From: a virus
Strand: one strand, 5' to 3'
DNA length: 64,000 bases
Virus record (IMG/VR): IMGVR_UViG_3300013111_000325
Span: 52,898 to 116,897 of that record
In this document: in pieces, positions 9,504 to 57,215 of the stretch
Numbering within the stretch: position 1 is the first letter of the stretch
Layout of the letters: every line of letters begins with the position of its first letter
The notes under the pieces: generated by a model
Seen by the model: the letters and a program-made list of their open reading frames with translations, nothing else
Databases searched by the model: none
Told to the model about the DNA's origin: nothing
Translations under genes and position numbers: made by a program

Positions 9504-9536
9504 AGCGGTAAGGTGGAAGACTTACCGCTTTGTTTC
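9504..9536 (+). terminator. probable intrinsic terminator
   Basis: AGCGGTAAG/CTTACCGCT stem followed by TTGTTT. Confidence 0.55.
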
Positions 9537-9550
9537 TCGGAAGGAGAAAG

Positions 9551-20763: not shown

Positions 20764-20775
20764 CGAAAGGATATT

Positions 20776-20955: not shown

Positions 20956-20959
20956 CATT

Positions 20960-20967
20960 TATAAATA
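20960..20967 (+). promoter_or_regulatory. T4-type late promoter
   Basis: TATAAATA directly upstream of the ATG at 20973. Confidence 0.75.
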
Positions 20968-20972
20968 TAGTC

Positions 20973-21733: not shown

Positions 21734-21742
21734 GAGCATAAA

Positions 21743-22009
21743 ATGAAATCATTTAATAGAATAAAAACTTACAAAGATTTTCTTAAAGAATATGATGACA
21801 GGACTGATCGGTATGTGGCTGATGAAATCAAACGAAGGAAACTTGCAAGAATTACTGTCAATGCAACTGACGATAGAAAGATGATAAAAGGTAAGGCCGA
21901 CTTTACTATGGATCATCATACTGGAAGTTCAACTATTCACGTATATTTGAGAAAGATACCAGGGTCTACAAAAGGTGTGGTTGCTTACAATTACGAACTA
22001 AAATTGTGA
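21743..22009 (+). CDS. probable capsid-internal protein
   Basis: MKSFNRIKTYKDFLKE. Confidence 0.6.
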   Translation: MKSFNRIKTYKDFLKEYDDRTDRYVADEIKRRKLARITVNATDDRKMIKGKADFTMDHHTGSSTIHVYLRKIPGSTKGVVAYNYELKL

Positions 22010-22028
22010 TTAATGGTAAGAGATCAAA

Positions 22029-23492
22029 ATGAAATCATTTAAGTCTTATTTAGCAGAACGCAGAAGAGGTGGAGAAGAGAAGAATCCAAGGGTTTCTGCT
22101 ATTAAGGCACTAGAACCTTATAAGAATGATAAAGATGTTTTCATTACCTATACACAAATTGAAAAGGTAGGTGTCAATCCAGGATCCAGTTATAATACTC
22201 CAAACGGTATCTATACATATCCTCTCAAAGAAGCATGGGAAAAATATTATGTCCCAGGAAAAGGAACTCTTAATGTACCCTTTGCTGGTGATTCCAGTTG
22301 GGTAAATGCAATCAAGATAAAATCAGATGCAAAAGTTATTAGAGATATTGGAGTTTCTTATAGTTCAAAGGAATGGGATGAAGATGTTTTAAAACTAGCC
22401 AAGATTTTTATAGATCATCCTTTTTCCAAGAAAAATTGGGTCCCAATACTAACCATGTTGCAGGGTGTCAATCTGTATGACAAGGTAGAAAAAGATTTTG
22501 TCGGAGTGCGTAAAGATTGGTATTTTGAAAATAGAGAAAATGTAATTTGGAATCTATTTAAGGCTATTAAACAACATGCTATGTATTCCGCATATAGTCA
22601 GACAATCGGTGGACAGATGTGGAATTTGACAAGAGAACTTGCGACCATTATCAAATATACAGAAATGATTGAAATGGATGCTATTGATGGAAATTCAGGA
22701 ATGGACGAATTTGAAATTTCTATTCAAAGATTGGAAAAACCTTTAGATTTATCCGATCAAACAAGAATGTTTTGGTTTAGATTCCATTCTGGATTTAGAA
22801 AAACGGCACCAAATGTCTGGACAGATTTGTGGTTGAAGATGGGATATGGTGGAGTGATTGACCGTTCAGAGAATGGAATAATACACGAAGCAGAACCAAT
22901 ACAAGGTGTGTTCTTTACAACCAAGGCTTTTGATGTTTTGGGCAGGTTCATGAATAAAGGTTACGAGAGAGTGAATATGAAAGGTCTTTATATTTTGAGT
23001 GGTCTTCGTGTGGGTAAGGATGAACTTGTACACAAATTGAAGAATTTTTTACACAAAGATCAATACAAGTCCCTTTGTGCTATTATTATATTTCACAAAA
23101 TAAATCAAATATTGGCAAAGTTTTTAACAAGTATGGGTTCTTCAGGTGATGCTGATCAGATTAGTGCCCAGGCACCAAAATATGTTATTAAAAGGGCTAA
23201 TGATAAAAAGACATGGTTGAAAGTAGACCAATTTGATCCTTTTGTTCCAAATAGTACACGAACAGTAGTTGAATTTTTAGAAAACGAAATAAAAATCTAT
23301 CCTGATAATCATACTCCTTCAAATTCAGTAATGTTTAAATACGATAAAATAATTCCTCCTTTTGCACTAGAAAAAGATTTATCTTCAACTTTAAATAAAC
23401 AGTCTTATATAAAAATGGGAATGATGTTAGATAAATCGGTAACTACCTTATTGAGCAACATGATAGAAGATGTTTTAGGTATAAAAATATGA
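22029..23492 (+). CDS. probable capsid-internal protein, possible ADP-ribosyltransferase fold
   Basis: MKSFKSYLAE; TPNGIYTY and L..MGYGGVID….IIHEAEPIQGVFF. Confidence 0.5.
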   Translation: MKSFKSYLAERRRGGEEKNPRVSAIKALEPYKNDKDVFITYTQIEKVGVNPGSSYNTPNGIYTYPLKEAWEKYYVPGKGTLNVPFAGDSSWVNAIKIKSDAKVIRDIGVSYSSKEWDEDVLKLAKIFIDHPFSKKNWVPILTMLQGVNLYDKVEKDFVGVRKDWYFENRENVIWNLFKAIKQHAMYSAYSQTIGGQMWNLTRELATIIKYTEMIEMDAIDGNSGMDEFEISIQRLEKPLDLSDQTRMFWFRFHSGFRKTAPNVWTDLWLKMGYGGVIDRSENGIIHEAEPIQGVFFTTKAFDVLGRFMNKGYERVNMKGLYILSGLRVGKDELVHKLKNFLHKDQYKSLCAIIIFHKINQILAKFLTSMGSSGDADQISAQAPKYVIKRANDKKTWLKVDQFDPFVPNSTRTVVEFLENEIKIYPDNHTPSNSVMFKYDKIIPPFALEKDLSSTLNKQSYIKMGMMLDKSVTTLLSNMIEDVLGIKI

Positions 23493-25126
23493 TCAAATTT
23501 TCATCTTTTCTAACAGAGACCGCACAAAAAATTAACACAGTTCTATCTCCTGCATTAAGATCCGAAATAAAACAGAGAAATGGTAAAGTATATCAGATTG
23601 GTGGTGCAGTTCGTGATGAACTAATCGGTAAAATATCCAAAGATTTAGATTTACTTGTAACAGGCATAGAAACAGATGAATTGCAGGATATATTAAGCAA
23701 TCATGGCAAAGTGGATGCGGTTGGTAAATCATTCGGTATTCTAAAATTTCAACCAAAAGGGCAGACAGGCGAACCTCTTGATATATCAGTTCCCAGAGTT
23801 GATGTTCAAAGTACAGGAGGCGGCCATAAAGATTTTGAAGTAAAACTTGGTAAAGATATTTCTCTTGAACAAGATCAGTTACGCAGAGACTTCTGGATGA
23901 ATGCTATCGCCAAAGATATTGAAACTGGTGAGATGCATGATATTGAAGGTAAAGGGCAGTTTGATATAGAAAATAAGCAGATTAGCGTGATTAATCCTCA
24001 AGCATTTGATGATGATCCTTTGAGAATGTTGAGAGCAATTCAATTTGCTTCTCGTTTTGGTTTCAGCATAGAACCTGAAACTATGAAAGAGATCAAAAAG
24101 AATGCTGACAAAATTTCAACGATATCAGCAGAGAGATTTCAAGAAGAATTTCGTAAAATGTTTGAAAAATCTGATAATCCGAGTGTTGGTGTTCAATTGC
24201 TATTTGACACAGGTATTGCAAAACTTGTTATACCAAAACTCAAAGAAGTTGATAATTCTGTTGATAAGTTAGATAAAAAAGCATTCCCAGCGTTTCTTGC
24301 AATACTATTTAAAAATTATATGCATAATGCAGGTGAAATGGCCCAGAAAATATTTAAATTGTCTAATGCTGACAGAGTATCAGTTCAGTCTGTTATTGAT
24401 ATGGATAAAAATCTGAAAAATTTAAAAGATCCGATATTTATCGTTAGATTTATGCGAAATAAATCGGAGCAAGAAATAATGAATGTTGATGAATATCTGA
24501 AAACAAAAGGTACAAGAACTATATCAGATTTTGTTAATGAGATGAGAAGACGAAGAATACCCACAAATCTTAAAGAATTAGGTGTAAATGGTCGTGATAT
24601 GATGCGAGAAGGATTTAAAGGTGTTATGATCGGTGATGCTCTACAATGGATGCTTGAATTTGCAGTAAGAACAGGTAAGGCTGAAAAAGGTCTTTTAGTT
24701 CGTAAAGCAAAAGAACATTTTGGTATTAAAGAAACATTCTTTTATGAAGATGTGCAGGGATTTTATGCTTTGACCATAGATCCTAGATCAAAACTGGATA
24801 TTCAACAATATGCAAGTCATGAAATTGTTGTATCGGATCATGTTACTGTTGCATATAAACCAAGCGATCAAGTAGGTGAAATATTGAATTCTATGTTGGG
24901 CAGAACTTATAACATACAAGCACATACCTATATAAGTAATGATAGAATAGATGCGGCAATCGTAGATATACAGGGATTAAAAAGTGATAGAATTGCACAT
25001 ATTACAATATCTCACATAAAAGGCGCAATTCCTGCCGAATCTAATGATTTGATACAAAATTCGCAACATAAAGAAAAAATGAATATGAAATTAAGAGGAG
25101 TGCTAAATTTTTATGCACACACCTAA
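23489..25126 (+). CDS. cca: CCA-adding tRNA nucleotidyltransferase (class II) fused to a C-terminal 2H phosphoesterase
   Basis: GGAVRD, DLDL, RRDFWMNA, DDPLRMLRAIQFASR and ERFQEE; C-terminal HVTV and HITI. Confidence 0.85.
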   Translation: MIKFSSFLTETAQKINTVLSPALRSEIKQRNGKVYQIGGAVRDELIGKISKDLDLLVTGIETDELQDILSNHGKVDAVGKSFGILKFQPKGQTGEPLDISVPRVDVQSTGGGHKDFEVKLGKDISLEQDQLRRDFWMNAIAKDIETGEMHDIEGKGQFDIENKQISVINPQAFDDDPLRMLRAIQFASRFGFSIEPETMKEIKKNADKISTISAERFQEEFRKMFEKSDNPSVGVQLLFDTGIAKLVIPKLKEVDNSVDKLDKKAFPAFLAILFKNYMHNAGEMAQKIFKLSNADRVSVQSVIDMDKNLKNLKDPIFIVRFMRNKSEQEIMNVDEYLKTKGTRTISDFVNEMRRRRIPTNLKELGVNGRDMMREGFKGVMIGDALQWMLEFAVRTGKAEKGLLVRKAKEHFGIKETFFYEDVQGFYALTIDPRSKLDIQQYASHEIVVSDHVTVAYKPSDQVGEILNSMLGRTYNIQAHTYISNDRIDAAIVDIQGLKSDRIAHITISHIKGAIPAESNDLIQNSQHKEKMNMKLRGVLNFYAHT

Positions 25127-32293: not shown

Positions 32294-33043
32294 TTGATGA
32301 AACTCTTAATAACGGGTGTCAAAGGATTTATAGGATATCATTTCTATAATCTAATGGCACACGACTCCACCTACAATCCAAGAAAAATATATGGTATAGA
32401 CAATTGTTCAGGATTAGCATGTGATGAACGTGATGTCCCATACACCTATGGTGATCTTATGGGTTGTGAATTACCTGAAGATGTGACACATGTTATACAT
32501 TTAGCAGGCCGTACCAGTGTAAGAGCCAGTTGGGTGCCAGAGAATATAAGACAATTTTATAGAGACAATTTTCTCGTAAGTGAGAGATTATTTGATTTCT
32601 ATAAAGACAAACCTGTAAAAATATTATATGCTACAAGTTCGTCTGTACTTGAGATGAAAAGCCCATATGCTATGACAAAGAAACTGGTTGAGCATATTGC
32701 ACCACCCAATGCTATTGGTATGAGATTCTTTACAGTATTTGGTGAGAAGGGAAGACCTGATATGCTTTATCGTATGGCACTAGAAGGTAATGTTCGCCAT
32801 ATGACTACAAATAAGAGAGATTTCACTCCAGTAGAACATGTTGTAAGATGCATTAGAACTTTACTCAATAAAGGCAACATGGGAGAGTTTTATGAGATTG
32901 GCACAGGTGAATCAAGAACACCCAAAGAATTTTTACAGAGACAGTCAATTAAAGTTCCACAAGTAGCATATATCAGAAAATTTGATGAGAGTCTAAATAC
33001 TTGTGCTAACGTATCAAAGATGGAGGCTTTGTTAAAGCAATGA
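32294..33043 (+). CDS. NAD-dependent sugar epimerase/dehydratase
   Basis: ITGVKGFIG, HLAG, YAMTK and RFFTVFG..GRPDM. Confidence 0.88.
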   Translation: MMKLLITGVKGFIGYHFYNLMAHDSTYNPRKIYGIDNCSGLACDERDVPYTYGDLMGCELPEDVTHVIHLAGRTSVRASWVPENIRQFYRDNFLVSERLFDFYKDKPVKILYATSSSVLEMKSPYAMTKKLVEHIAPPNAIGMRFFTVFGEKGRPDMLYRMALEGNVRHMTTNKRDFTPVEHVVRCIRTLLNKGNMGEFYEIGTGESRTPKEFLQRQSIKVPQVAYIRKFDESLNTCANVSKMEALLKQ

Positions 33044-34227
33044 TAGATTGGATTCAAAAAAACTTACAGATATTGACAAATAAGAATAAAAATGTTATAA
33101 TTTATCCCGATACTCTTGAAAAACGTAATCGTAGATTAGAAGACACAACCACAGACCCTATTCTAGAGAAATTACATGCCGAAGCAGGACGAGATAGACT
33201 TTTATCTGGAAACGATCAAAAATCTTCAGAATGAATTGTTTAGATGTGAAACACTGAATGATCGTAAAATAGTTCGTGATGATATCTACAAATATAAACA
33301 AAAAGTAAACGAACTTGTAAAGCAATTAGATGAAAACAATATGTTTACAGATTTTTCTAATTAGTTTTATTATTACGGGATGTGTCAGCAAAGCAACTTG
33401 TTGGAAGATAATAAATGGCGGTCAATGCGTACCCATTCAATCATATGAAGAATGGAACAAATGTGTTATGCCATGCGAAAACATAATTATAAGAAGTAAG
33501 ACAAAACCATACAAACCCGTTGACTGGATTAGACCGAGACCCTATGCATATCCATGAATATTCAATAGAAACACTTTATCACATGAAATGTGGTAAATGT
33601 CACAATTGGTGGAGTTATGCTCACACTCCTGACCTCACTTATATAACTAACCACGACCCAAGATCATTTGCACAGAATAGAAAAATGCATTGCCCGCATT
33701 GTAGTGCAGAAGGTGAATTGAAAGAAATACAATACGGTGAGAAATGAATATCTGGGTAGAATTTTACAAATATTCTGACAACAGAAAAAACACCCATGCA
33801 CAAATGAAAGAGCAGGCTAAATGGTTGCCACCTGATCCCAGTATAATACGAAAAAGATTTTTTGATAAGATGAGTGATGCAAAAGTATTTGCTAAACGTA
33901 TGGAGGAAGATGATTATATGGTATCAATAAAAAGAGATGGGAGTTTACTATGAGATACATTGGTCCAAATAAGTTCATATCATATATAAATTCGAATAAT
34001 ACTGATGAAGACAAACATATGTGGATGTCTGCCGATCAATATAGTGAAGCGGTAAAAATCATGTTGAAGAATGAAAAGAGGCCACCAACATATGTTGGAG
34101 AATTAGAAAAATTAAATAAAAGGAGATATTTAAGTGTTATCGATGGAGGTAAGATCAAGAGAGATAATCAGAAAGATAATTGATAAAGAATTAGATTTAT
34201 CATGGAAGAATTTAGAAAAACAACAAT

Positions 34228-35460
34228 ATGAAAAACAATATGAAAAATTTAAATCTAGAAACATACCCTACAGGAAGAAGCCCGAAAGGTAAGTTCTATT
34301 TTGGTGAACGAGCATTATTGTTATGTAAAGAAAGACCAAAAGATTGTCAAATAGGATTTGAATCTGAATTTGATAGATTATATGATGACCTGTTTTCTTG
34401 TCATTATGAATACAAAAGTATGTTCAGAACATGTGGTATTGATTTCAATGTAGCAACGACAAGCGAATCCCACCACAGATTTGTCGGTAATATGTTCGGA
34501 CAAATCACAGTCAAATCACTATCAGCAATATCAGATGATTGGATTATATTTCACAACATGGAATATGAATCAGAACCAAAGGTCTATATACATCTCGATA
34601 GAAAGATAGTATTGATTGTTGGCACGAGTTTTCTTGGTGAGATCAAGAAGGGTGTGTTTTCAATTATAGGGTTTGAGATACCGCAGAAAAGCATGTTGCC
34701 AATGCATTGTTCAGCATTTGAATATCAAGATAATACTGCATTGATGTTTGGATTGAGTGGAACGGGTAAGACAACCTTGAGTGCAGACCCAGAATATGCG
34801 TTGATTGGTGACGATGAAATAGCATGGAGTGAGTTTGGATTAACTAATATTGAAACAGGATGCTATGCAAAGACTGATGGGCTAGATCGTGAGACACAAC
34901 CCACAATATTTGATGCTATGGAGAGTGCAAGTAAAGACGGTGTTCTCATTGAAGAGAATAAGGGTGTGCCAAACGCAAGAGCAAGTTATCCCATAAGATA
35001 TGTCAAAGGTGAGATTACATGCCATGCATTATTCAAGCATCCAAAGCATATATTCTTTCTATCACTTGATGCGACTGGTACACTGCCTGCAATATCAAAA
35101 GTAGAAGGTAAGACGATAAGAACTCTATTTGAGACAGGTTATACAAGTAAAATGCCTGGTACAGAGGATGGAGTGAATGAAATACAGAAGGTTTATTCAC
35201 CGTGCTTTGGTAGCCCTTTTATGCCATTGCCCGTGAATGTATATAGTGATATGTTAATGGACAGAGTAATTGAAGAGAATAGCAATGTATATTTGGTCAA
35301 TACCGGCATGAATAAAAGTGGAGAGAGATTTCCATTAAGTGAGACACGAGAAGCAATCAAAAAAGTATTGAATTATGATGTAGAAACTCGTGAGATTGAG
35401 TGGACTAATCCATCTCAACCTTGTAAATTGGGTACAATTAAATTAAATGAAATTATTTAA
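34228..35460 (+). CDS. pckA: phosphoenolpyruvate carboxykinase (ATP), compact form
   Basis: TGRSPK, GEIKKG, MHCSA, FGLSGTGKTTLS, IGDDE, GCYAK and SPCFGSPF. Confidence 0.9.
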   Translation: MKNNMKNLNLETYPTGRSPKGKFYFGERALLLCKERPKDCQIGFESEFDRLYDDLFSCHYEYKSMFRTCGIDFNVATTSESHHRFVGNMFGQITVKSLSAISDDWIIFHNMEYESEPKVYIHLDRKIVLIVGTSFLGEIKKGVFSIIGFEIPQKSMLPMHCSAFEYQDNTALMFGLSGTGKTTLSADPEYALIGDDEIAWSEFGLTNIETGCYAKTDGLDRETQPTIFDAMESASKDGVLIEENKGVPNARASYPIRYVKGEITCHALFKHPKHIFFLSLDATGTLPAISKVEGKTIRTLFETGYTSKMPGTEDGVNEIQKVYSPCFGSPFMPLPVNVYSDMLMDRVIEENSNVYLVNTGMNKSGERFPLSETREAIKKVLNYDVETREIEWTNPSQPCKLGTIKLNEII

Positions 35461-37357: not shown

Positions 37358-38077
37358 ATGAACGTATACATTGCCGCACCGTTCGGAAATTACATTCATA
37401 GAAGCGGTATATCAAGCATTATGGGTACTTTTACACTCAAGCAACGACCAGGGTTGATATTACAACTGATAAAAACTCTCAGGTATTCTTTTATCGACAA
37501 AGCATGGTACAATGCTCTGGGCTTACGTAATCCTGGTATATTGGAAGGATTACATAGATATGATAAAAATAGCAGAGAACGCCTTATCAGTATCGCCGCT
37601 ATAGAACCGTCCGACTGGCAATCTCTTCACGATATCATTCCATTCCATATTCCGCTAGAAATTAATATATCATGTCCAAACATTTCAAAGTTTATTCATT
37701 ACGTCAAAGATATACACATATTCGCAAATCGCAATCCCATCATCAAACTGCCTCCCGAAATTCTAGATCGAGAATTAAAAGAGATATACGACATGGGTTT
37801 CCGTAGATTTCATTCATGTAATACACTCAAAACTTCCAAAGGTGCCAGAAGCGGATCCATTCTGAGAAATTTCGTTACGAATCAAATCAGAACATTAAAA
37901 GAGATGGACGAGACCAATACCTGCATTGCGGGCGGAGGGATCACAGAAATTTTTGACATTCACTATTATCAATCTATAGGAGCCGATGCTTATTCACTAG
38001 GCTCCGTATGTTTTCATCCAATTAAGTTTAAAAAATTGATGAATGAAATAGCCCAACTCAAAAGGAAAGGTAATTGA
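37358..38077 (+). CDS. dihydroorotate dehydrogenase-like FMN TIM-barrel protein
   Basis: NALGLRNPG, EINISCPN, NT, SG and IAGGGI. Confidence 0.75.
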   Translation: MNVYIAAPFGNYIHRSGISSIMGTFTLKQRPGLILQLIKTLRYSFIDKAWYNALGLRNPGILEGLHRYDKNSRERLISIAAIEPSDWQSLHDIIPFHIPLEINISCPNISKFIHYVKDIHIFANRNPIIKLPPEILDRELKEIYDMGFRRFHSCNTLKTSKGARSGSILRNFVTNQIRTLKEMDETNTCIAGGGITEIFDIHYYQSIGADAYSLGSVCFHPIKFKKLMNEIAQLKRKGN

Positions 38078-39006
38078 GAAAACGTATAATATGGAAGAAT
38101 CGTCCTGGTGTCAATGGATATGGTGATGTATTAAATTGCAAAAAAACACTTAATCAAAGGCTCATTATGAATAAAAAAGATACATTAATAACACAAGAAG
38201 AACTTCAATCAGAACTTTCCAAAATGCAAAAAAGACTTGAAAAGTTAGAAGCATTTCGTGAAAGGACATCCATCATTGGTCGTGAAATCGGTAAGGCACG
38301 AATAGAAATTGAAGCAGAAGAAATCATAGGTAATTCATCATATGGATTATCCAATGCATCTCGCACACGTAGAGTAACTAATTCAAGATTTATCAAAGTA
38401 AAAATTGAAGGTAAGACAGTTGTTCTTGCAACCGATTCAAAACAAAATGTAACTGTTTGTGTAGGTCCCAACGTGAATATACGTACAATAGATGTTAATA
38501 CTGACACCAAAATGGAAGACATAGAACAATATCTGTCTCATTTTGATTTGGTGTAGTGAAACTTCGTAACTTCATGATTTGCACCAATTGTTACGAAAGT
38601 TTCTCACAAGACGCCATAGAAGTAGGAGAATTGTTTCACTGTTCTCCGGAGACCTCTGTGGTTTGCTCTGAGAAATGTAAAGAAGAAATAAGAGAGAAAG
38701 TAGCAAATGGTACTTGGAAGGATTATTATGTACGGTTTCCTGTGCGTGTTTCTGAGAAATGAACAATGCTTAGGCGTCAGTAAGTCTAAAAGGGTCGCAA
38801 CCTTGAGCAACAGAGTGTTCTGAGTACGCCTAAGCATTTTGAAATGGTAGTGAAACATCGTATTAGAAAACTTTGAGCGTTTCTTTGACAATTCTTAGGC
38901 GGACTTTGAATAATCAAACCCGTGTATATTCAAATATTCAAATATTAAAAAAGAGGTTTTTTAATGTATCTCCTGTGTATTCTCTCTCACGAGTGATCGG
39001 TTCAAA

Positions 39007-39212
39007 TGCAATGCAAAGAGTGTGCAAAGTGTATGCTGAGAACGTAAATAAATGTTTATGCAAGTTACTGTATATACGAATATGCAAATACTTGTATATA
39101 CTCAGAGAAAATGTGAGAAACTTTCAGAAAATGCAAGTATCGTGCAAAGTATGCAATCCAAGAGTTACACTACTAGAAATGCATACTTAGAGTGCAATGC
39201 AAGAAGTGTGCT
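39007..39212. repeat. cluster of TGCA(A) motifs in intergenic DNA
   Basis: TGCA at 39007, 39012, 39023, 39059, 39083, 39132, 39143, 39152, 39180, 39193 and 39198. Confidence 0.65.
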
Positions 39213-39233
39213 AGAAAACACTCAGAGGAAAAC

Positions 39234-39262
39234 TTGACAAACGCTTGACAACGTGTTATACT
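39234..39262 (+). promoter_or_regulatory. sigma70-type promoter
   Basis: TTGACA-17-TATACT with TGn. Confidence 0.6.
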
Positions 39263-39431
39263 ACGTATGTAGCCGGTTGATGAATTTGTGTATCTTATAT
39301 CCTCTTATAAGTAACTCAAAGATATTTGTGTCTCTTTAATCGACTTCTAAGTAACTCAACTTGTGCTTCTCTGAGAAACATAAGAGGTAGTCAAATTATG
39401 TGACCACCTCAAAAAAACTTCAAAAAAACTC

Positions 39432-39490
39432 TTGACAATCCTTTAGAATTTGCTATACTAATAATGTGAGTTGATGATTAACCTTTTCCC
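39432..39490 (+). promoter_or_regulatory. repeated early promoter with conserved leader
   Basis: A-tract, TTGACA-16-TATACT, then GTGAGTTGATGATTAACCTT. Confidence 0.85.
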
Positions 39491-39707
39491 CAATGAGGAA
39501 AGATGAGTGAAATCAGAAAAGAGACAGTAGAAGAGTTCTTGGCCAGAGGGGGTCGAGTTGAGCGAACTGAGGCAGTTCTTGGTGCGAAGTCACTGAACAT
39601 GTTTTCAAAATACTCTGCGAACTACCGAGGAGGACACGGTAAGACTCGTATGGGAAAGAATGGTTCTGGTAAGGCACGTATGTCTGAATCATATTGGAGT
39701 GTATAAT

Positions 39708-40062
39708 GGCGTTTGCTGATAGTTCTACATACTTTAATGTAGGTGACAGTTCAATCATTGGTTCCTTTGAGAATAAAGAAACTGGTAAATTCTTTGAGTA
39801 TTCTGAAGGTAAAGAAGAGGATTGGGGAACCTATGCTGATTATGGGCTGAGGAATGAGTATGTTCATCGAGTTTGGGTAACTACTCCTTGGAAAATGGAT
39901 AGAGGTTTTCGTATGGCAAAGGTTCTGAAAACTGTTGCCTATATTCTTCTTGATGAAGATGACTACGGAGAGCCTGTGATAGAGAAATGGAAAATCAAAA
40001 AACATAAAGTCTACGATAGAGAGAAGAAACACTACTGGTCAGACTATGATTTAACTTCCTAA
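39708..40062 (+). CDS. early hypothetical protein
   Basis: ORF downstream of an early promoter; GGAG RBS; start approximate. Confidence 0.55.
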
Positions 40063-40080
40063 AAAACTTTAAAAAAATAC

Positions 40081-40120
40081 TTGACATTCCTTTAGAATTT
40101 GCTATACTAATAATGTGAGT
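40081..40120 (+). promoter_or_regulatory. repeated early promoter (near-identical to the 39432 copy)
   Basis: TTGACATTCCTTTAGAATTTGCTATACTAATAATGTGAGT. Confidence 0.85.
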
Positions 40121-40705
40121 GAGAGAGAGAAGAGAAATTCTCCTCTGTCAATGAAGACAGTGAACCTCTCATCGGTTAGCCTTCTGTAAACGAGCCCATG
40201 CTAAGGACTATTTCCTGTTTGGGTCTGAGGGGTTACTGAGAAAATCATAATGAGACAATACGAGATATGTGATTAAGAGATGGTCACGGCCCATATTGGG
40301 TAGCAGTGACACGCACATATCTCGTATTCCTCAAGAAAGGCTGATGTCTCTCTGAGGCCCTAAAGTGGTCTAGACGAAATATCAGAGAGACGGCCGAACA
40401 CCTCTATTAGGAATTGCTCAATGAGTATTGTTGACCAACTGACAATAGAGAGTTGTGGGACTGCTCTCCCCTAGTCACCTACAAAGGTTCGTAATGATGC
40501 GAGGTAGACGGCTGATGTGACGGGGAACGACAAATAAGAACACATGTGCATAAGACACATGGCAGGTTCAGTATGCACCTGTGTCCCAAGAAAATACGAA
40601 AGGTAGCCGAAGAAAAAAGCGGTAAGAGTTTTTCGCAAAGGTTCTCTGAAACAAAACCTATGCAGACTGAGCGGTGGCAGTCTTGGTGGGCCACCGTTGT
40701 TCTTT
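40115..40705 (+). ncRNA. candidate large structured non-coding RNA
   Basis: Strong promoter, no credible ORF and GC content higher than the flanks. Long stems: AATACGAGATATGTG/CACATATCTCGTATT, GTCTCTCTGA/TCAGAGAGAC, CATGTG/CACATG. It ends in the GCGGTGGC/GCCACCGT hairpin plus a U-run. Confidence 0.6.
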
Positions 40706-40745
40706 TTCTCTTGACTTTTGTTGTGTTATATGACACAATGAAACT

Positions 40746-40902
40746 GAAGATAAGAGAGGACATGATAACCCTCTTGACCTCTTCCTCGTGCTAACGATTG
40801 GCAGTTAGCGGTTGAAAGAGACTTATCACCTCTGACAACAACGAGTAAAGACACGCAACAGTGTCAAGACCCCAGGTCGGTTCGACTCCGGTCCTGGGGA
40901 TT
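40746..40902 (+). ncRNA. candidate structured RNA ending in a T-loop hairpin
   Basis: Nested stems and the terminal CCCCAGG-TCGG-TTCGACT-CCGG-T-CCTGGGG. Confidence 0.5.
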
Positions 40903-40921
40903 GCTATATGTACTGACATGC

Positions 40922-40959
40922 TTGACAATTGAAAAAACCATGCTATAATATATAAATAA
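40922..40959 (+). promoter_or_regulatory. early promoter with adjacent late promoter
   Basis: TTGACA-16-TATAAT followed by TATAAATA. Confidence 0.7.
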
Positions 40960-41619
40960 TATTTGAATAAGGATAAGTCCAGAAGCACAAGCACGGACGG
41001 GAAGGGGTGGGCATACAGTCTGAGGATGCACCTGTATATTCTCTGCACGATCTTGGTGCATCCTCTGCACACTCTCTGAATAGGGGGTGGGGGGCAATAT
41101 GTTTTCGGCAAGATACTTGGGGTGTGCATAGATATACAACGAGGTTGCTATAACGGTCGAATTGAAAATTTTTTTTGGAGTAAATTGTGAAGAAGAAAAA
41201 AACATTTACAAATATCGAATTCCAAGTTCAAACCAAATACGGTTGGAAAACACTAAAAACAGAAACAGACATGCCTGATCTAGAGGTGATGGAACAATTA
41301 GAGAAGTATGAAGAAACGTATTCTGATAAAAGAGTAAGAATACATGCAGAAGGAAATAAAAAAGTTTTTGAGGATTATAATTTTTACATAGTACGCAAAG
41401 ATCCTAATATGTCTTCTAAGAAAATTCCTACTGATTTCAAGCGTTTGTCAAGTTTTCCTCTGAGTGTGGAGTCAAAACTTTTAAAGACCACACAGGATGC
41501 AGGAAAAAATATTAAAGTTGTTGATGTAGATAATAATGTTTTAAGTGAAATAAATTTGGATAAAGATCGTGTAATTACGAATACAATATAAGTTACGCAA
41601 ATTTTTTTTTGGAGTATAA

Positions 41620-41952
41620 ATGGCTGAGAAAGTCGCAGAAGCAGAGGAAGCAAAAGAACCTGTTATCATGCCTTACAATAAGGACCAAGACAGACCTTAT
41701 AAAAATCCTAAGGTACAGTTCTTCAAGACATTTGATGGAGATGGAACAGAGATCAATGATTGGCAAACATTCCATAGGGCACACAGATATTGGTCTGAGA
41801 TTGATGTTAAGGATCAATTAAATATTATTCAGTATAGGTATAAACATCTACCAGAGAAGAGAAGATTTAGAGTGATTGATGAGGATGGTAATACAATACG
41901 TGAAGTAAATCTGAATGACGAAGCGAAAGCGACTGACGATACCGAAGAATAA
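41620..41952 (+). CDS. hypothetical protein; C-terminus resembles that of 41187..41591
   Basis: RVIDEDGNTIREVNL versus KVVDVDNNVLSEINL. Confidence 0.55.
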   Translation: MAEKVAEAEEAKEPVIMPYNKDQDRPYKNPKVQFFKTFDGDGTEINDWQTFHRAHRYWSEIDVKDQLNIIQYRYKHLPEKRRFRVIDEDGNTIREVNLNDEAKATDDTEE

Positions 41953-42508
41953 TAATGATCCTTTTGGATTAGAGTTTGAGATTGCTCTGATGAAAGCGAG
42001 GTATGTCTACCCTGCTCCTGAGAACAAAAAGATACATCCCGATGATATATTAGGTCATGCAAAACAAATATATGAAAGCGAGATGCTTGAGAGGTCTTTG
42101 TGTGCTTTCTATGATAGTATTGTACCTGTGACTTATCGTACTACCTCTGAGCATTTATCTAATACTTTCTTACAAAAACAATCTTCATATAAAATAGTAA
42201 AATATAAAAGTAAAACTAATACGCATATAAGAAACATCTTTGAAATATCTTATGAATTTCTAGATGTTCTACATGTCCCAACGGGAAAGGTGATAGAGTG
42301 CAAGGTGCATAAGTCTGATGCAGGCTTGGAGAGACATAGACGTAGAATACTTGAACGGCGTAATGGAAGGCGGGATAATGATTTATCTGATTATTATCTA
42401 ATATGTCTAGATAAGGAGGATGTATTTGAAGTAACAGAGTTTTTAAGTATAGGGAATGCTGGTCGCTTTGTTCGTGAAAATTTTGAGGAGTTTATAAATG
42501 AAAACTGA
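41915..42508 (+). CDS. possible PD-(D/E)xK nuclease
   Basis: LDV……IECK motif. Confidence 0.4.
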   Translation: MTKRKRLTIPKNNNDPFGLEFEIALMKARYVYPAPENKKIHPDDILGHAKQIYESEMLERSLCAFYDSIVPVTYRTTSEHLSNTFLQKQSSYKIVKYKSKTNTHIRNIFEISYEFLDVLHVPTGKVIECKVHKSDAGLERHRRRILERRNGRRDNDLSDYYLICLDKEDVFEVTEFLSIGNAGRFVRENFEEFINEN

Positions 42509-43238
42509 ATTAAATAATCCAGGGTGGTTTGTTTTGGAGAATTTCTATACTCCAGAGGAAACTGATTTGGTACTGGAAAGTATTCGTCAAGTGACGGAAA
42601 ATGATGAAGTGTATCTGTATCATGACAGAGCCGACAGGTTGAGGCGAATGGAATATTTTGCCTTCTATGACGAAGTATTGAAAGATTTGGATAGAAGATT
42701 TCGGAATATATTGTACGAGGCGACTGGTGAGCAATGGAGTTTGTTTAAGGATAAGGTGAACTTTAAGCCTTCTGGTGGAGAGGGATTCTATGCACATTAC
42801 GATGGCATCTTTGAGTTTAAAAATGCGAATGGAACAACAAGTAATGGTTGGTATGAATATGCTAGAGAGTTTCTATCAGCATTACTTCTATTAGATGACT
42901 TTACGGAAACCAATGGTGCATTAGAGTTGAGTAATATGCATGACGAGGACTGGAATACTCTATATGGTAGAACAAAACAAAATGGTACACCCGATATACG
43001 TGAAGACTTGGTGAATACTTATGATTGGACAAAGGTCATTGCAAGTAAAGGTAGTGTTTTGGTTTTTGATCATCGTGTACCTCATATGTCTCGTATGAAT
43101 GAATCTGAGTCCACCCGTCGGACAATATACTATACGTATAATCCTGCGAGGGTAGGGAATTTTTACGAGAAATATTTTTTAGATAAGTATAACAGTAGAA
43201 ACACAAATAGTAAATCATTATCTGGTGAATTGAAATGA
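42498..43238 (+). CDS. PhyH-family Fe(II)/2OG dioxygenase (PhnY-like)
   Basis: LFKDKVNFKPSGGEGFYAHYD, NGAL and H.S..N.S..RR..Y.TYN. Confidence 0.8.
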   Translation: MKTELNNPGWFVLENFYTPEETDLVLESIRQVTENDEVYLYHDRADRLRRMEYFAFYDEVLKDLDRRFRNILYEATGEQWSLFKDKVNFKPSGGEGFYAHYDGIFEFKNANGTTSNGWYEYAREFLSALLLLDDFTETNGALELSNMHDEDWNTLYGRTKQNGTPDIREDLVNTYDWTKVIASKGSVLVFDHRVPHMSRMNESESTRRTIYYTYNPARVGNFYEKYFLDKYNSRNTNSKSLSGELK

Positions 43239-48124: not shown

Positions 48125-48487
48125 TTGACTTTTACGAAATCGGCCGCCAAAGAAATCACTAAGATTATGGAGCGTGATGGACTCTCACCTGAAACACATG
48201 CAGTAAGGATAGGAGTCAAAGGTGGTGGATGTTCAGGTCTGACTTATACATTAGACTTTGATGATTGTCAACGCAAGTTTGACATCACCTATACCAGCAA
48301 TGGTTTGACTATTTTAGTTGATAAAAAATCCCACCTATACATTGGTGAGACTGAGATTGATTGGTCATACAATCTTATGGATCGAGGTCTCAAATTCAAT
48401 AATCCACACGCAAAAGTTTCTTGTGGTTGCAAGTCCTCATTCATGGTAGATATGCCCGAGGTAACAGAAAAACCATCTTGGATGTAA
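48125..48487 (+). CDS. second Fe-S A-type carrier (IscA/ErpA family)
   Basis: RIGVKGGGCSGL.Y and F.NP…SCGC. Confidence 0.9.
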   Translation: MTFTKSAAKEITKIMERDGLSPETHAVRIGVKGGGCSGLTYTLDFDDCQRKFDITYTSNGLTILVDKKSHLYIGETEIDWSYNLMDRGLKFNNPHAKVSCGCKSSFMVDMPEVTEKPSWM

Positions 48488-48495
48488 AAAAACCC

Positions 48496-48556
48496 TTGAC
48501 ATCTTGCCCCAGTTTGCTATTATATAAATGTACTGATTAGATAACCCTTTCGGAGA
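48496..48556 (+). promoter_or_regulatory. repeated early promoter with leader
   Basis: TTGACA-16-TATTAT…GTACTGATTAGATAACCCTTTCGGAGA. Confidence 0.85.
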
Positions 48557-49335
48557 TGCCAAAATGAAAAGTCTAAAAAGAATGAAATTTGAAGAACTTT
48601 TTAAAGAGTGTGTGGAACTGAGAGCAGAACGTGTTCATCTATCCCATGAGTTGAGTAAGGCAAAAGCCGAACTTGAGAAAATGAAACGAGAAATGGAGTT
48701 TGCTGAAGAAATGGGAGTGAATTTTTATGAACTTGAAGAAATGAAACGAGAAATGGAGACTGCATAATGTTCATATCAGAAGTCAGATCAAGAGGAATTA
48801 AATATCGTGGTAGGTTTAGTCACAGAAAATACTTTGAGACTTTGGAAGAAGGTCTTGAATGGGCAAGAGGCCTTGCTGGTCGCATTGTTGCTTCTGGTAG
48901 GTACTCTGATGAAGAAATCGTAATGGAACACAGTGAGGTCAAATGAGAGATCCAGAATACGCAAGAGGTTTTAAAGAGTCAATGAGAGAACTGGCATGTT
49001 CCGATCTTGAAAGTGCCGCAATGAGAATTGAAATTCTTGAAGAAGAATTAGAAGCCGAACGCAAAAAGAAATGGGAACTGGTACACAAAATCAAATTGAT
49101 TGATTCTGGTACTGATCTTGATACCATTCTTGATAGTGGTGAGCCATTGACCCTTCATGAGAAAATTGAAATGATTAAAGAAGGATTTGCAAATGTTTAA
49201 ATCATCAAAAGCATATTGTAATGGTGAACTGATTTGGGACGCAAAAGACCCAAAGTTCAATCATTGTCTCAAAAAAGATATTGAACATTACAAAAAATAT
49301 CTTAAAGAAAAAGAAAATTTCATTGCAAAAAAGTC

Positions 49336-49397
49336 TTGACAAGTTAGCCTAATTTGCTATTATATAAATGTACTGATTGAGATAACCCTTTCGGAGA
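49336..49397 (+). promoter_or_regulatory. repeated early promoter with leader
   Basis: TTGACA-16-TATTAT…GTACTGATTGAGATAACCCTTTCGGAGA. Confidence 0.85.
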
Positions 49398-50218
49398 TTG
49401 AATATGAGTTCAAGCCTAGATAGACTTTTTGAAGAAGCCAGAGAAGACGGATCACTTCGTCTTTGGGAAATCGGTGATACAGTTGTTGTTCATGCCCTGA
49501 ATGACCTTGTTGGTGAGGTTACCAAGCGGTCACTAAATGGCGATGGTGTTTATGACTACATGGTTCACTATGAACGTGACGGGTCTTGTGAGTGGTGTGA
49601 GGCTTCTGATCTGAGAGAAGCAAATGATCTTGATAACTGGTCGTTGACTGAACGTGAATGTTGGTCTTTGTATTGAAACCTTATTTTAGGAGTAGTTATG
49701 GGAATGGTTAAAAAAGCATTGATTGAACATGAAATTAGAATGGAAGACTTTGAGGCGGGTCTGGAATGGATGACTCGTTATGGAGTCAAAACTTTTAAAG
49801 ACCATACTGGTGAGTGGGTAGAAGTTCGTTGCTCAAAAGAATACGACTTTTGGTCCCCAGACCCGAAACCTATTGCACACCTTACATCGGAAACTGCATA
49901 ATGGAAACTGTTAGAGAACTTAAAAAATTTGATGCATTGCTGAGAATGACTCGGTTCTCTACCAAACGTAAGGGCAATGATAAAAAGAGGCAATCCAAGA
50001 AACTTTGTCGCAAAAAAATCCGATGGGACGAATAAAAAAATGGTTTCGCCATATGGCATTTGAGTGGGAATTAATGAAGTGTAACCTTGAAGCAAGATTG
50101 GGGATGATATGAATGAAGCAATTTTTGAAGCAATTTACGAAGAGTTACTTGAAGCAGGATATGAAGATTGTCAAGAAACTGTTGAATTAGCAATCATGAT
50201 TTTTTACGACAGGGCATT

Positions 50219-55804: not shown

Positions 55805-56234
55805 TAAATATTTGAATGAACTATGATATTTTACTTCTAACTTTAACAATCGTATGTGCTTTAACAGTTGGTGCGTATGTATACAAAAAAGAAATTGATA
55901 CACCACCTCCGCCTAAACCAGATATACGATACTATCATATAAATTTTTAATTCATCTCCGGCCTATATAATAATGTAATGAATAATACAAGGAGATTTTA
56001 TGTTGAATACTATTAAGGTACACTGTAATGAAATAACAAAAGGACAGTGTATGGCACAATTGGATGGAGAAATTCAAGTTTGTGGTAAACATAATATATG
56101 TGCAGTGAATGAAATTAGATGGAATCTTCATGGAACTTCTAATGGAGAAGTTTTTGAAGAGGCCTTTAAACAAATTTGGGACATGGCCTATACAGAAGGT
56201 TTAGAGGATAGATCGTTTACATAAAAAAAATAAT

Positions 56235-56459
56235 ATGCCATTATACGAATATAAATGTGAAGTTTGCTCTAATATAGAAGAGAGTATTGAAAAAATAAAT
56301 ACAGAAAAAATAGAATGCCCTATTTGTAATAACACGGCAAAAAGAATTATTAGTTTATCTAGTTTTGAATTGAAAGGTAGTGGTTGGTATAAAGATGGTT
56401 ATTCATCAATTATTCCAAACAATACGGAAAAAAACAATACAGAAGACCAAACATCGTAA
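56235..56459 (+). CDS. FmdB-family zinc-ribbon protein
   Basis: MPLYEYKCEVC…CPIC…FELKGSGWYKDGY. Confidence 0.85.
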   Translation: MPLYEYKCEVCSNIEESIEKINTEKIECPICNNTAKRIISLSSFELKGSGWYKDGYSSIIPNNTEKNNTEDQTS

Positions 56460-56645
56460 TTATGTCAACTTCCGATCAAAAAGCATTTGAAGAATTTCTA
56501 AAAATCATGTTAGATGATGATCAAAGGTTTCCATGTACATATAAACCTAATAAAAGCAGTAAAGAATTTACTGAAGGTCTAGAAAAAATTCTTCAGGAAA
56601 AACAAATCGAAATAAATCGAAATAAAACGAAATAAGGAGAATATT

Positions 56646-57215
56646 ATGAAAGTTTCACTACGCAAAGCAAATGCACTTCAAGAACAACTTAACGAGGCGA
56701 TTAAAAGTCGTCCTAGTGCAGACCACGAGGTCAATGTTGTTGACCATGAAATGTGGAAGACTGAGGTAGAGAGTGCCCAGGCCAAATACTATGATGAAGT
56801 GAAGCGAAAACTTGAAATGGTTGAAACCAGGTTTTCTATTCGCAAGAGTATTGCCAACCATAATACCTTGTGTGGTGTTACCGATTTGCTTACGGATCTC
56901 AATCATGTTGAGAGTAAGATTACCACAATCCAGAGATGGATTATTCAAAGAGAAGTTCGTTCAAAAGACGAGGTTCTTGAAAAACAAAGAAACCGTAAAG
57001 TGGCTCGTGCCGAGAATGCAGATTACGATGGCTACATCTCCATGGATGTATCCGTCATCGGTAAGAACGACCATGAACACTGGACTGAAAAAGTTAAAGT
57101 GTTGAAGCGAAACAAAGCCAAAATCAACGATGAGTTATTGTCGTTGAACATCAAAACTGAAATAGAGTTATCACCGCAGGTGGTGAGGATTCTCAAACAA
57201 GAGAATTTGATCTGA
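56646..57215 (+). CDS. coiled-coil protein (DIP1984/DUF6847-like)
   Basis: MKVSLRKANALQ…I…N…DELLSLNIKTEIEL; strong AAGGAG RBS. Confidence 0.6.
   Translation: MKVSLRKANALQEQLNEAIKSRPSADHEVNVVDHEMWKTEVESAQAKYYDEVKRKLEMVETRFSIRKSIANHNTLCGVTDLLTDLNHVESKITTIQRWIIQREVRSKDEVLEKQRNRKVARAENADYDGYISMDVSVIGKNDHEHWTEKVKVLKRNKAKINDELLSLNIKTEIELSPQVVRILKQENLI

Follow-up and report, generated by a model that had tools for sequence, protein, structure and literature searches.

The question raised by this locus is whether an ORF-free stretch of about 590 nt, lying behind its own strong early promoter in an uncultured marine T4-like phage, encodes a structured non-coding RNA, and whether that RNA belongs to any known class. 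The window analysed is a 64,000-nt stretch of IMG/VR record IMGVR_UViG_3300013111_000325 (positions 52,898 to 116,897), and all coordinates refer to it. A sequence-only reading had proposed that the stretch is a stand-alone, highly structured RNA of a size similar to ROOL and GOLLD that fits no known class. The observation itself was borne out by the analysis described here, and the interpretation was supported, with two corrections given below. The function of the RNA is still unknown. The elements of the locus, as finally defined, are as follows.

40081-40108, + strand: early sigma-70-type promoter, -35 TTGACA at 40081-86, TG, -10 TATACT at 40103-08; predicted transcription start near 40115.
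40115-40705, + strand: predicted primary transcript U1, about 590 nt, non-coding; ends inferred from the promoter and terminator.
40119-40172, + strand: 5' three-way junction (leader), P1 40119-25 / 40166-72, P1a 40127-31 / 40138-42, P1b 40145-49 / 40156-60 with loop AATGAA.
40173-40256, + strand: variable linker between the leader and the inserted modules.
40257-40328, + strand: module M1, a 15-bp outer stem (40257-71 / 40314-28) enclosing the conserved GTGATTAAGAGATGG, a GGTCAC/GTGAC stem and a small variable hairpin.
40346-40391, + strand: module M2, a 10-bp stem carrying a conserved 26-nt loop that contains the palindrome GTCTAGAC.
40404-40663, + strand: conserved 3' domain (core), with Ha 40404-08 / 40444-48, Hb 40418-24 / 40428-34, conserved GACCAACTGACAATAG, P3 40449-52 / 40464-67, P4 40468-78 / 40517-25, P5 40479-82 / 40504-07, P5a 40490-93 / 40498-501, P6 40543-48 / 40556-61, P7 40562-67 / 40577-82, P8 40606-09 / 40620-23 and P9 40635-42 / 40656-63.
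40457-40587, + strand: long-range pairing PK1, GGGAC 40457-61 in the P3 loop with GTCCC 40583-87.
40664-40709, + strand: module M4 and terminator, GACTG 40664-68 / CAGTC 40678-82 (S1) interleaved with CGGTGGC 40672-78 / GCCACCG 40690-96 (S2), followed by a U-run.
40711-40905, + strand: neighbouring unit U2, a weak promoter, then a 160-nt RNA ending in a tRNA-like acceptor/T-arm minihelix (40870-40899, then A40900, no CCA encoded).
40922-41186, + strand: neighbouring unit U3, a perfect TTGACA-16-TATAAT promoter and a 230-nt G-rich leader before ORF 41187-41591.

The promoter of U1, TTGACA-16 nt-TATACT with an upstream TG, matched the consensus at 11 of 12 positions, and its first 40 nt are 98% identical to the promoter at 39432. 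About a dozen promoters of the same class occur in the genome, and that of U1 is one of the strongest of the phage. The start site is inferred and was not mapped. No + strand ORF of 30 aa or more lies wholly inside 40115-40705; the only + strand ORF touching it (40546-40794, GTG start) runs across the terminator and the next promoter. The GC content is 42-48.5% across 40100-40700, compared with about 30-40% in the flanks.

The stems reported in the sequence-only reading were then examined. The 15-bp perfect pair is real (100% complementary), but lies at 40257-40271 / 40314-40328, one base to the left of the first arm originally given. The pair GTCTCTCTGA/TCAGAGAGAC is at 40346-40355 / 40382-40391. 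CTCTATT/AATAGAG is the outer part of a 20-nt, 75% complementary pair at 40402-40421 / 40431-40450. CTGTC/GACAG (40145-49 / 40156-60) and GCAGGT/ACCTGT (40562-67 / 40577-82) were confirmed and covary in relatives. The terminal hairpin, CGGTGGC/GCCACCG at 40672-40678 / 40690-40696, is followed by TTGTTCTTTTTCT, and therefore has the GC-rich stem and directly adjoining U-run of an intrinsic terminator.

A folding energy no better than that of dinucleotide shuffles had been put forward as grounds for rejecting the RNA. However, the MFE was -188.7 kcal/mol compared with -163.4 +/- 7.0 for 100 dinucleotide shuffles (z -3.62), and none of the shuffles was as good. The reverse strand also scored (z -4.39), so folding energy alone does not give the strand. 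The strand is given instead by the helices, in which G.U outnumbers A.C 122 to 8 cells, indicating that the + strand RNA is the folded molecule. Of the neighbouring units, U2 folds better than shuffles (z -4.23), while the fold of the U3 leader is no better than shuffles (z -1.03). Single-sequence MFE structures disagreed among relatives and were not used; the helices reported are those supported by comparison. A local hairpin in the linker 40173-40256 is seen only in the single-sequence fold, and an MFE pairing of GGTTAGCC in the 5' region with GGTAGCC before P8 was dropped because it conflicts with the covarying P8.

To determine whether the RNA is confined to this genome, a degenerate pattern from its core was used to search viral and metagenome sequences. 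The pattern found 5 viral and 28 marine metagenome loci which, with the window, make 34 sequences (denoted here by L and a number). All 34 are true homologues, 17 of type I (window-like) and 17 of type II. The same pattern found no match in one genome for each of 185,579 prokaryote species, so there is no prophage or host clue. BLASTN in a distant mode with 40050-40950 and with a type II member gave no match in 50,697 GenBank phage records. A 15-mer and a 16-mer from M2 and M1 gave mostly chance hits, with 2 of 20 and 3 of 15 stretches being true. A model of the core found nothing credible in HTVC008M, Melnitz or Mosig (best E 0.14-0.54, against 1.6e-23 for the window's own genome), and only one copy exists in the 117 kb of this genome that were searched. 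A search for loci related to the downstream ORF 41187-41591 found none, whereas the upstream ORF 39694-40062 found 7 loci, only 1 of which carries the RNA. The RNA is therefore an accessory cassette in a mosaic early region.

The absence of covariation among homologues was a further outcome that, by prior statement, would have counted against the RNA. Covariation was instead found to support about 80 base pairs in the window's type. In an alignment of the 3' domain from 13 distinct sequences, 62 pairs were 94.8% paired compared with 87.7% in shuffles, and 18 pairs changed on both sides compared with 10.9; in both cases 0 of 500 shuffles did as well. In type II, 49 pairs were 94.6% paired against 84.1%, and 19 pairs changed on both sides against 11.3. 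In an alignment of 10 distinct leaders, 17 pairs were 97.0% paired against 86.0% (0 of 500), and all 5 pairs of P1b change on both sides. The core shared by the two types is 99.5% paired in 26 sequences. Slid controls gave 32-46% for the 3' domain and 32-65% throughout. The helix PK1 is 100% paired, 3 of its 5 pairs change on both sides, and it was predicted independently by RNAalifold. It forms a pseudoknot with P3, or possibly a contact between molecules; pairing within one molecule and between two was not distinguished by sequence.

Comparison of the relatives led to the two corrections. The most eye-catching stems, the 15-bp pair and GTCTCTCTGA/TCAGAGAGAC, are optional inserted modules and not the conserved core. 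M1 was found in 7 of 15 type I loci and also in type II loci, at other positions and once in tandem (L042), and its inner and outer stems covary. M2 is present in 9 of 15 type I loci, while in a type II phage, the record that holds L011 and L017, it sits upstream of the promoter. The M2 loop is unique in the window and its stem covaries, for example CTCTGA/TCAGAG against CATCGG/CCGATG. The distance from leader to core varies from 152 to 381 nt among relatives. The second correction concerns the terminal hairpin, which is a conserved module. In 10 distinct copies S2 shows 4 pair types, S1 never varies and the loop is conserved; the pseudoknot between S1 and S2 is inferred from complementarity. 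A U-run follows in only 4 of the 10 copies, so termination is not the module's only constraint. All 15 type I loci that reach upstream have a promoter at the same place, and all 15 have the leader.

Lack of a transcript had likewise been named in advance as evidence against the RNA. Contigs from two metatranscriptome libraries (runs X11 and X12) cover 40226-40550 and 40218-40615 with 2-3 differing letters, and, at U2, an RNA contig covers 40767-40937. However, these contigs come from one study, which also holds DNA runs with the sequence; DNA can be present in RNA libraries, and contig depth is a poor measure of expression. One RNA-library contig of a relative includes the -35 region of the promoter, so it is read-through or DNA. 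Two other RNA runs (X17 and X18) held only short or diverged pieces. No RNA contig covers 40115-40217 or 41173-43000 in X11 or X12, although such gaps prove nothing.

A strong Rfam hit, it had been noted, would remove the novelty of the RNA. A cmscan of the whole window against Rfam 15 at gathering scores found only 4 tRNAs, and a scan of 39900-41500 at E up to 10 gave 5 matches of 12-20 bits, all far below threshold. The RNA therefore did not reach the gathering score of ROOL, GOLLD, OLE, raiA, HEARO or any other family. The relatives L042, L011 and L057 gave only a tRNA and sub-threshold Ocean-VII and mir-135 matches. A resemblance to the cobalamin riboswitch, seen by eye in type II relatives, was considered and rejected. 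There was no match at E up to 10 on a 501-nt stretch of a type II member or on the window, the GGGAAGG-like stretch is base-paired, with a 7-bp covarying stem, and no downstream gene is regulated in the window.

Coding potential and the neighbourhood were also examined. There are 1- and 2-nt indels inside the conserved domain, and a short ATG frame in the P1b hairpin (12 codons in the window) shifts frame between relatives. The U2 unit has 7 homologues, and minihelix pairs change on both sides in 2-3 of 7. The U3 promoter matches at 12 of 12 positions, and the unit is conserved in L047, where the downstream ORF differs. A tRNA-like T-loop motif lies within 900 nt in 16 of 34 loci, tRNA genes abut the RNA in L058, L068 and L042, and a CCA-adding enzyme is encoded at 23489-25126. 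A search for a partner among neighbouring genes turned up no RNA-binding candidate; the only recurrent neighbour is a DHO_dh-like protein in 8 loci, which may simply reflect shared gene order.

The reading best supported, held with a probability of roughly 0.6, is that U1 is a genuine, transcribed, non-coding RNA of a previously uncatalogued family of large (about 400-630 nt), modular, highly structured RNAs encoded by uncultured marine T4-like myophages. The comparative data directly establish the strong sigma-70-type early promoter of every member that reaches upstream, the 5' three-way junction, the conserved multi-helix core with its covarying long-range pairing, and the insertion or shuffling of the optional self-contained modules M1, M2 and M4 between members. 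The mechanism, in contrast, is an inference and considerably more tentative, at about 0.35. In this view the RNA is made in quantity early in infection and acts in trans as a stable folded RNA, either a scaffold or decoy for a host or phage factor or a self-associating RNA of the ROOL/GOLLD kind, functionally tied to the adjacent tRNA and tRNA-like elements and to the phage's own CCA-adding enzyme. No function was tested.

The possibility was considered that the RNA is instead a cis-acting element, a long structured leader (riboswitch-like sensor, attenuator or stabiliser) controlling read-through into the downstream units and genes. In two type II loci, L048 and L073, the core sits in what looks like a 5' UTR, followed with no terminator by another conserved element and then an ORF. 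In L047, L063 and L075 U1 abuts the next unit with no M4, M4 lacks a U-run in 6 of 10 distinct copies, and the core has long invariant single-stranded stretches, like an aptamer. However, in the window a hairpin plus U-run ends U1 and two more promoters precede the next ORF, 480 nt away; downstream content differs among relatives (U2, other modules or different genes) such that no gene is consistently controlled; and no riboswitch family matches. The cis reading is thus considered unlikely. Somewhat less likely still is that the 590 nt is a polycistronic array or precursor of independent small RNAs (leader, M1, M2, core, M4), cut apart by RNase III, P or Z, each with its own role, for example as a decoy against host defences. 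The modules do occur in different orders and copy numbers in different phages, and the leader occurs alone in L042. The 15-bp perfect duplex of M1 is long enough for RNase III, and the tRNA-like minihelices next door could direct RNase P or Z cuts. However, the core is held together by long-range covarying pairs, P4 spanning about 50 nt and PK1 about 125 nt, so at least 260 nt act as one fold. Moreover, leader and core stay together in members that lack M1 and M2, and an RNA-library contig spans M1, M2 and core continuously (40218-40615).

A highly divergent tmRNA or other translation-linked tRNA-like RNA, with U1 as the pseudoknot-rich body and the neighbouring minihelix as the tRNA-like part, was suggested by the pseudoknot-type pairings of U1, the canonical T-loop of the U2 minihelix, the CCA-adding enzyme and the two-piece tmRNA that cultured relatives (Melnitz-like and pelagimyophages) carry directly behind an early promoter (PMC9004378). 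This reading is very improbable and already largely refuted. ARAGORN found no tmRNA in the window or in 40 loci scanned, and no tmRNA family of Rfam matched even at E up to 10. The third pair of the minihelix is C-G and not G.U, and its 5' strand lies next to the T arm rather than at a 5' end. There is no conserved tag frame, since the frames after the conserved TAGTC/TAGTG differ in length, give unrelated short peptides and lie in covarying helices. Finally, a DNA-level element (origin, packaging or recombination site) or a decayed coding region with chance stems might account for the folding of the reverse strand and for an overlapping antisense ORF of 94 aa. This is refuted by the strand asymmetry and the many compensatory changes; furthermore, antisense ORF lengths vary from 62 to 150 aa and the promoter is conserved.

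A bolder reading, speculative and rather doubtful though not excluded, is that this is the founding example of a new class of large phage RNAs built from exchangeable, independently folding modules around a conserved pseudoknotted core. Abundant marine T4-like phages would make it at the very start of infection, and it would work as an RNA-only machine, either a self-assembling ROOL/GOLLD-like particle or a new ribozyme or ligand-binding core. Its role would be to take over or protect the host's tRNA and translation apparatus, with the modules shuffled under an arms race with host defences. If true, this would be of great interest. Large, intricately folded non-coding RNAs are rare, and each new class (RNase P, group I and II introns, OLE, GOLLD, ROOL) has revealed new RNA biology. 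The present family occurs in 28 marine metagenome contigs and 6 viral records, counting the window's own, and belongs to a T4-like lineage related to phages of SAR11 and OM43, the most abundant marine bacteria. Its module shuffling is unusual for RNA and gives natural domain-swap experiments. The family offers a concrete target for cryo-EM and chemical probing, a marker RNA for early infection in ocean metatranscriptomes, and a way into the long-standing question of why phages place large structured RNAs next to their tRNA genes.

Among known systems, the two-piece tmRNA of Melnitz-like and SAR11 myophages resembles U1 in being a structured RNA gene directly behind an early promoter in the nearest cultured relatives (PMC9004378), with pseudoknots and, here, a tRNA-like element nearby, but the defining features of tmRNA are absent and the core model matched nothing in those phage genomes. 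The stable RNAs C and D of the phage T4 tRNA region are small RNAs of unknown function encoded beside tRNA genes in a T4-like phage, with tRNA-like ends, a likeness that applies mainly to U2. They are about 120-140 nt and co-transcribed with tRNAs; no sequence comparison with them was made. The catalogue of candidate structured RNAs of IMG/VR (DNAVirus_N, PMC10690425) rests on the same data source, intergenic regions, and the same kind of evidence, covariation. Its 8,495 motifs are 29-151 nt long, so the full RNA is not there as one unit; single hairpin modules may be among them, an overlap that was not examined against the motif lists. The Ocean-VII motif (RF03092), a 41-nt marine metagenome motif whose name was found in no searchable paper text, its description probably being in supplements, is the only echo in Rfam. 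The 3' end of type II relatives (TGAGT...GGAGAT, then a hairpin with a GAACAAG-like loop) aligns to the whole model, and the P9 loop of the window's RNA (CTGAAACAAAA) carries a similar loop motif. However, the scores of 20.9 bits (L042) and 15.3 bits (L057) fall far below the gathering score of 53.5, and the window's own RNA gives no Ocean-VII match.

The closest in kind are the large ornate RNAs ROOL (RF03087) and GOLLD (RF01998), which are phage or prophage RNAs, often near tRNA islands, with many pseudoknots and unknown function (PMC12286853). The RNA described here fits the descriptive kind, being phage-encoded, non-coding and over 400 nt, with many covarying helices including long-range pairs, and it shares with ROOL and GOLLD a size range of several hundred nucleotides, a conserved region plus less conserved or variable regions and a location near tRNA or tRNA-like genes. 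One ROOL pairing first read from covariation as a tertiary contact proved to join separate molecules (PMC12286853). In the present RNA, PK1 and the palindromic loop of M2 are only candidate contacts between molecules, multimer or cage formation not having been assayed. It differs from ROOL and GOLLD in that it has no sequence or structure-model similarity to either family, even at E up to 10, in its hosts and lineage, a marine T4-like phage, and in having its own strong early promoter.

All long ORFs in the window run on the + strand. Between ORF 39694-40062 and ORF 41187-41591 lie 1.1 kb with no credible + strand ORF, where the GC content is 42-48.5%, compared with 30-40% around it. This stretch is divided by three promoter-like sites:
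40081-40108, promoter P1, TTGACA-16-TATACT with TG
40711, promoter P2, a weak site
40922, promoter P3, a perfect TTGACA-16-TATAAT

Promoter P1 is 98% identical over 40 nt to the promoter at 39432. It belongs to a class of about a dozen near-identical early promoters found across the genome, for example at window 39432, 48496, 49336, 53327, 58072 and 61074, that share an A-rich upstream stretch, TTGACA, N10, TTTGC before the -10, TATNNT and an initial transcribed GTGAGTGAG, the downstream part of the pattern being ATAAATGT(G)AGTGAG. The other promoters of this class are followed by short leaders, often with a small hairpin around the ribosome-binding site, and lead into a ribosome-binding site and a gene within 30-40 nt. 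P1 alone leads into about 590 nt without one. Further stretches with no ORF of 90 aa or more on either strand occur at window 20479-20973, 21733-22029, 33043-34228, 48487-49398 and 56000-56646; some lie behind early promoters and may contain more non-coding RNAs.

The stems listed in the sequence-only reading of this DNA were present, although its 15-bp pair lies at 40257-40271 / 40314-40328, one base off the first arm as it was originally placed. The stretch ends in CGGTGGC/GCCACCG followed by a T-run. A folding energy no better than that of dinucleotide shuffles had been set out in advance as grounds for rejecting a structured RNA. However, the + strand folds to -188.7 kcal/mol, with z -3.62 against such shuffles. 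The observation of about 590 nt of highly structured, ORF-free sequence behind its own strong early promoter is real.

The window is the second half of a 116,897-bp IMG/VR record that CheckV rates 52% complete. The genome encodes a T4-type DNA polymerase, major head protein, helicases and an SbcC-like nuclease, as well as a class II ribonucleotide reductase. A 545-aa tRNA nucleotidyltransferase of the CCA-adding or poly(A) polymerase family, encoded at 23489-25126, could mature the tRNA-like RNAs that lack an encoded CCA. Auxiliary metabolic genes that are unusual for a phage, at window 9530-10789, 14203-15678 and 34228-35460, encode an ammonium transporter (Amt), a family-3 solute-binding protein and an ATP-dependent PEP carboxykinase (PEPCK). 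The head protein is 61% identical to those of Pelagibacter phage HTVC008M and Methylophilales phage Melnitz, both Kyanoviridae. The genome, for which no host was identified, is therefore that of an uncultured marine T4-like myophage.

Homologues of the RNA were sought through the flanking gene and through the RNA itself; the loci are designated by L numbers. The flanking gene 39694-40062 has 7 relatives in IMG/VR, but only one of them (L004, which is the same record as L014) carries the RNA, at 93-94% identity. In this locus, the promoter spacer and the end of the upstream gene have diverged more than the RNA has. A second phage record, which contains loci L005, L011 and L017, shares only islands with the RNA of the window, and in a different order. 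From the islands common to three phages, a degenerate pattern was written, GACCA-N3-GA-N-AATAG-N15-40-CTAGT-N-ACCT. The pattern matched 5 viral loci and 28 metagenome contigs, and nothing in one genome each of 185,579 prokaryote species. Neither type of the RNA was found among GenBank phages, and a core covariance model found nothing in HTVC008M, Melnitz or Mosig. On inspection, all 34 sequences, counting the window, are clearly homologous; 17 are type I (window-like) and 17 are type II.

The type I loci share a common architecture. The promoter is present in all 15 loci that reach far enough upstream, L047 and L081 being cut off upstream. It is followed by a 5' three-way junction of about 55 nt, present in 15 of 15, and by a variable stretch, such that the leader-to-core distance is 152-381 nt. 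The 3' domain is of constant length, 171-178 nt from the core motif to the loop of helix P9, and is optionally followed by module M4. The most conspicuous stems of the sequence-only reading proved to be inserts: module M1, which carries the 15-bp stem, occurs in 7 of 15 loci and module M2, which carries the 10-bp stem, in 9 of 15. Members such as L084 and L062 lack both and are about 400 nt long.

The same modules turn up elsewhere. M1 sits 3' of type II cores and occurs twice in tandem in L042, while M2 lies upstream of a promoter in the record containing L011 and L017. Furthermore, the leader occurs alone before another promoter in L042. The stems of the modules covary while their loops stay fixed. 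M4 follows the core in 6 of 15 type I loci, and its stem S2 shows 4 pair types in 10 distinct copies. In contrast, GACTG and CAGTC, which could form a second, interleaved stem, never vary. A U-run follows M4 in 4 of 10.

A lack of covariation among homologues was another outcome that had been specified beforehand as counting against the RNA. Four alignments were examined. Alignment A2 comprised 13 distinct type I 3' domains of 17, L014 and L076 having been dropped as truncated and L067 and L077 as duplicates over that span. A3 comprised 16 of 17 type II cores, L059 having been dropped as truncated. A4 comprised 10 distinct leaders of 15, and A5 comprised 26 distinct shared cores of 34.

Table. 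Base pairing and pairs changed on both sides in the four alignments, compared with shuffles.
A2: 62 pairs; 94.8% paired, shuffled 87.7%, 0 of 500 shuffles as high; 18 pairs changed on both sides, shuffled 10.9, 0 of 500 as high
A3: 49 pairs; 94.6% paired, shuffled 84.1%, 0 of 500 shuffles as high; 19 pairs changed on both sides, shuffled 11.3, 0 of 500 as high
A4: 17 pairs; 97.0% paired, shuffled 86.0%, 0 of 500 shuffles as high; 6 pairs changed on both sides, shuffled 3.7, 5 of 500 as high
A5: 17 pairs; 99.5% paired, shuffled 87.0%, 0 of 500 shuffles as high; 8 pairs changed on both sides, shuffled 6.1, 24 of 500 as high

When the 3' partners were slid by 1-3 columns, only 32-46% were paired in A2 and 36-65% in A5. 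In A5, the central pair of helix P4 swaps C-G for G-C between the two types. The number of further pair types was not significant in A2 (32 of 500), A4 (39 of 500) or A5 (436 of 500). The shuffle control ignores phylogeny, so these figures are not probabilities. The long-range pairing PK1 joins the P3 loop to a segment 125 nt downstream; it is 100% paired, and 3 of its 5 pairs change on both sides. RNAalifold also predicted PK1, blind. Moreover, the helices hold 122 G.U cells against 8 A.C cells, which fixes the folded molecule as + strand RNA and rules out a DNA structure or an antisense gene.

The coding potential of the region was also evaluated. No + strand ORF lies inside the RNA, and the conserved domain has 1- and 2-nt indels. 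An antisense ORF cluster has lengths of 62-150 aa and exists only because the sequence is conserved. A 12-codon ATG frame in hairpin P1b of the leader changes frame in relatives.

The absence of a transcript had likewise been named as a possible refutation, and public sequencing runs were examined for the RNA. Twenty runs contain part of 40081-41190, and 6 of them are RNA libraries. When contigs were aligned to 38000-43000, two small metatranscriptome runs (X11 and X12) carried contigs over 40226-40550 and 40218-40615, with 2-3 differing letters. Contig word depths were 25.2 and 21.4 on the RNA, and 5.9 and 5.8 on the upstream gene, although contig depth is a poor measure. Both runs come from one study, which also has DNA runs containing the sequence; DNA may be present in RNA libraries, and one relative's contig reaches into the -35 region. 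The contigs are therefore taken as consistent with transcription, not as proof of it. The same runs carry shorter contigs over the upstream gene and over the neighboring unit U2.

Two further units lie downstream of the RNA:
40711-40905, U2, a second non-coding unit behind a weak promoter
40922-41186, U3, a perfect consensus promoter and then a 230-nt G-rich leader before ORF 41187-41591

U2 folds well (z -4.23) and ends in a 12-bp acceptor/T-arm-like minihelix (40870-40899) with a canonical T-loop, followed by a discriminator A and no encoded CCA. It is conserved in 7 loci, and in the 7 homologues the minihelix pairs covary. The fold of U3 is no better than shuffles (z -1.03), but the leader is conserved in L047 although the ORF behind it differs. 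The T-loop motif of U2 lies within 900 nt of the core in 16 of 34 loci, downstream in type I and upstream in type II, and ordinary tRNA genes abut the RNA in L058, L068 and L042.

Upstream of the type II cores of L042, L069, L071, L074 and L079 there is a hairpin with a conserved 20-nt loop (GGGGTGGTGTAGGGAGCAC), often followed by a tRNA-like minihelix directly before the core. Another conserved element (GGAGC-CCTCCGTCAGTGGGG-G-rich-CAGCACGAC-GCCCAGAGA) sits in the 5' UTR of small ORFs in two type II phages, on the minus strand of L011 at 2380-2480 and on the minus strand of L048 at about 1700-1760 in reverse-complement coordinates, and is a candidate cis-regulatory RNA. Additionally, a 239-aa DHO_dh-like (FMN TIM-barrel) protein, encoded at window 37358-38077, recurs within 0.7-4.7 kb of the RNA in 8 loci of both RNA types, which could reflect shared gene order or a functional link.

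The conserved promoter, the conserved fold on the + strand, the lack of coding potential, the exchange of modules and the proximity to tRNA-like elements were all demonstrated by these analyses. That the RNA is a discrete, abundant, early and trans-acting molecule is, in contrast, an inference. The best guess, with a probability of about 0.35, is that it is a stable scaffold or decoy, or a self-associating particle, connected with tRNA and translation takeover. The possibility that it is instead a cis-acting leader is considered unlikely, and an array or precursor of small RNAs somewhat less likely still. A divergent tmRNA is very improbable, and a DNA element or chance even more so. The earlier interpretation, a large structured RNA that could be assigned to no known class and may be new, is supported. 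The RNA represents a new, well-supported family of large structured phage RNAs to which no function has been assigned; it is novel as a class, although its general kind has been seen before.

A strong match in Rfam, which it had been conceded in advance would remove the novelty, was not found. Rfam 15 at gathering scores identified only the four tRNAs at 54-56 kb in the window, and with lax filters on 39900-41500, at E up to 10, there were five meaningless matches of 12-20 bits. The nearest cultured relatives carry a two-piece tmRNA directly behind an early promoter (PMC9004378), and this identity was therefore tested. However, ARAGORN found no tmRNA, and the RNA fails on every defining feature. 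The only echo in Rfam is Ocean-VII, a 41-nt marine motif that aligns, well below threshold, to the 3' hairpin of type II members. Ocean-VII may be a fragment of a third relative, but this is speculation. Single modules may already be listed in a catalogue of 8,495 IMG/VR motifs of 29-151 nt (PMC10690425).

In kind, although it is not a member of either family, the RNA resembles ROOL and GOLLD, which are phage-borne, several hundred nucleotides long, rich in pseudoknots, often beside tRNA islands, and of unknown function. Both form RNA-only cages. In ROOL, a pairing first read from covariation as a tertiary contact proved to join separate molecules (PMC12286853).
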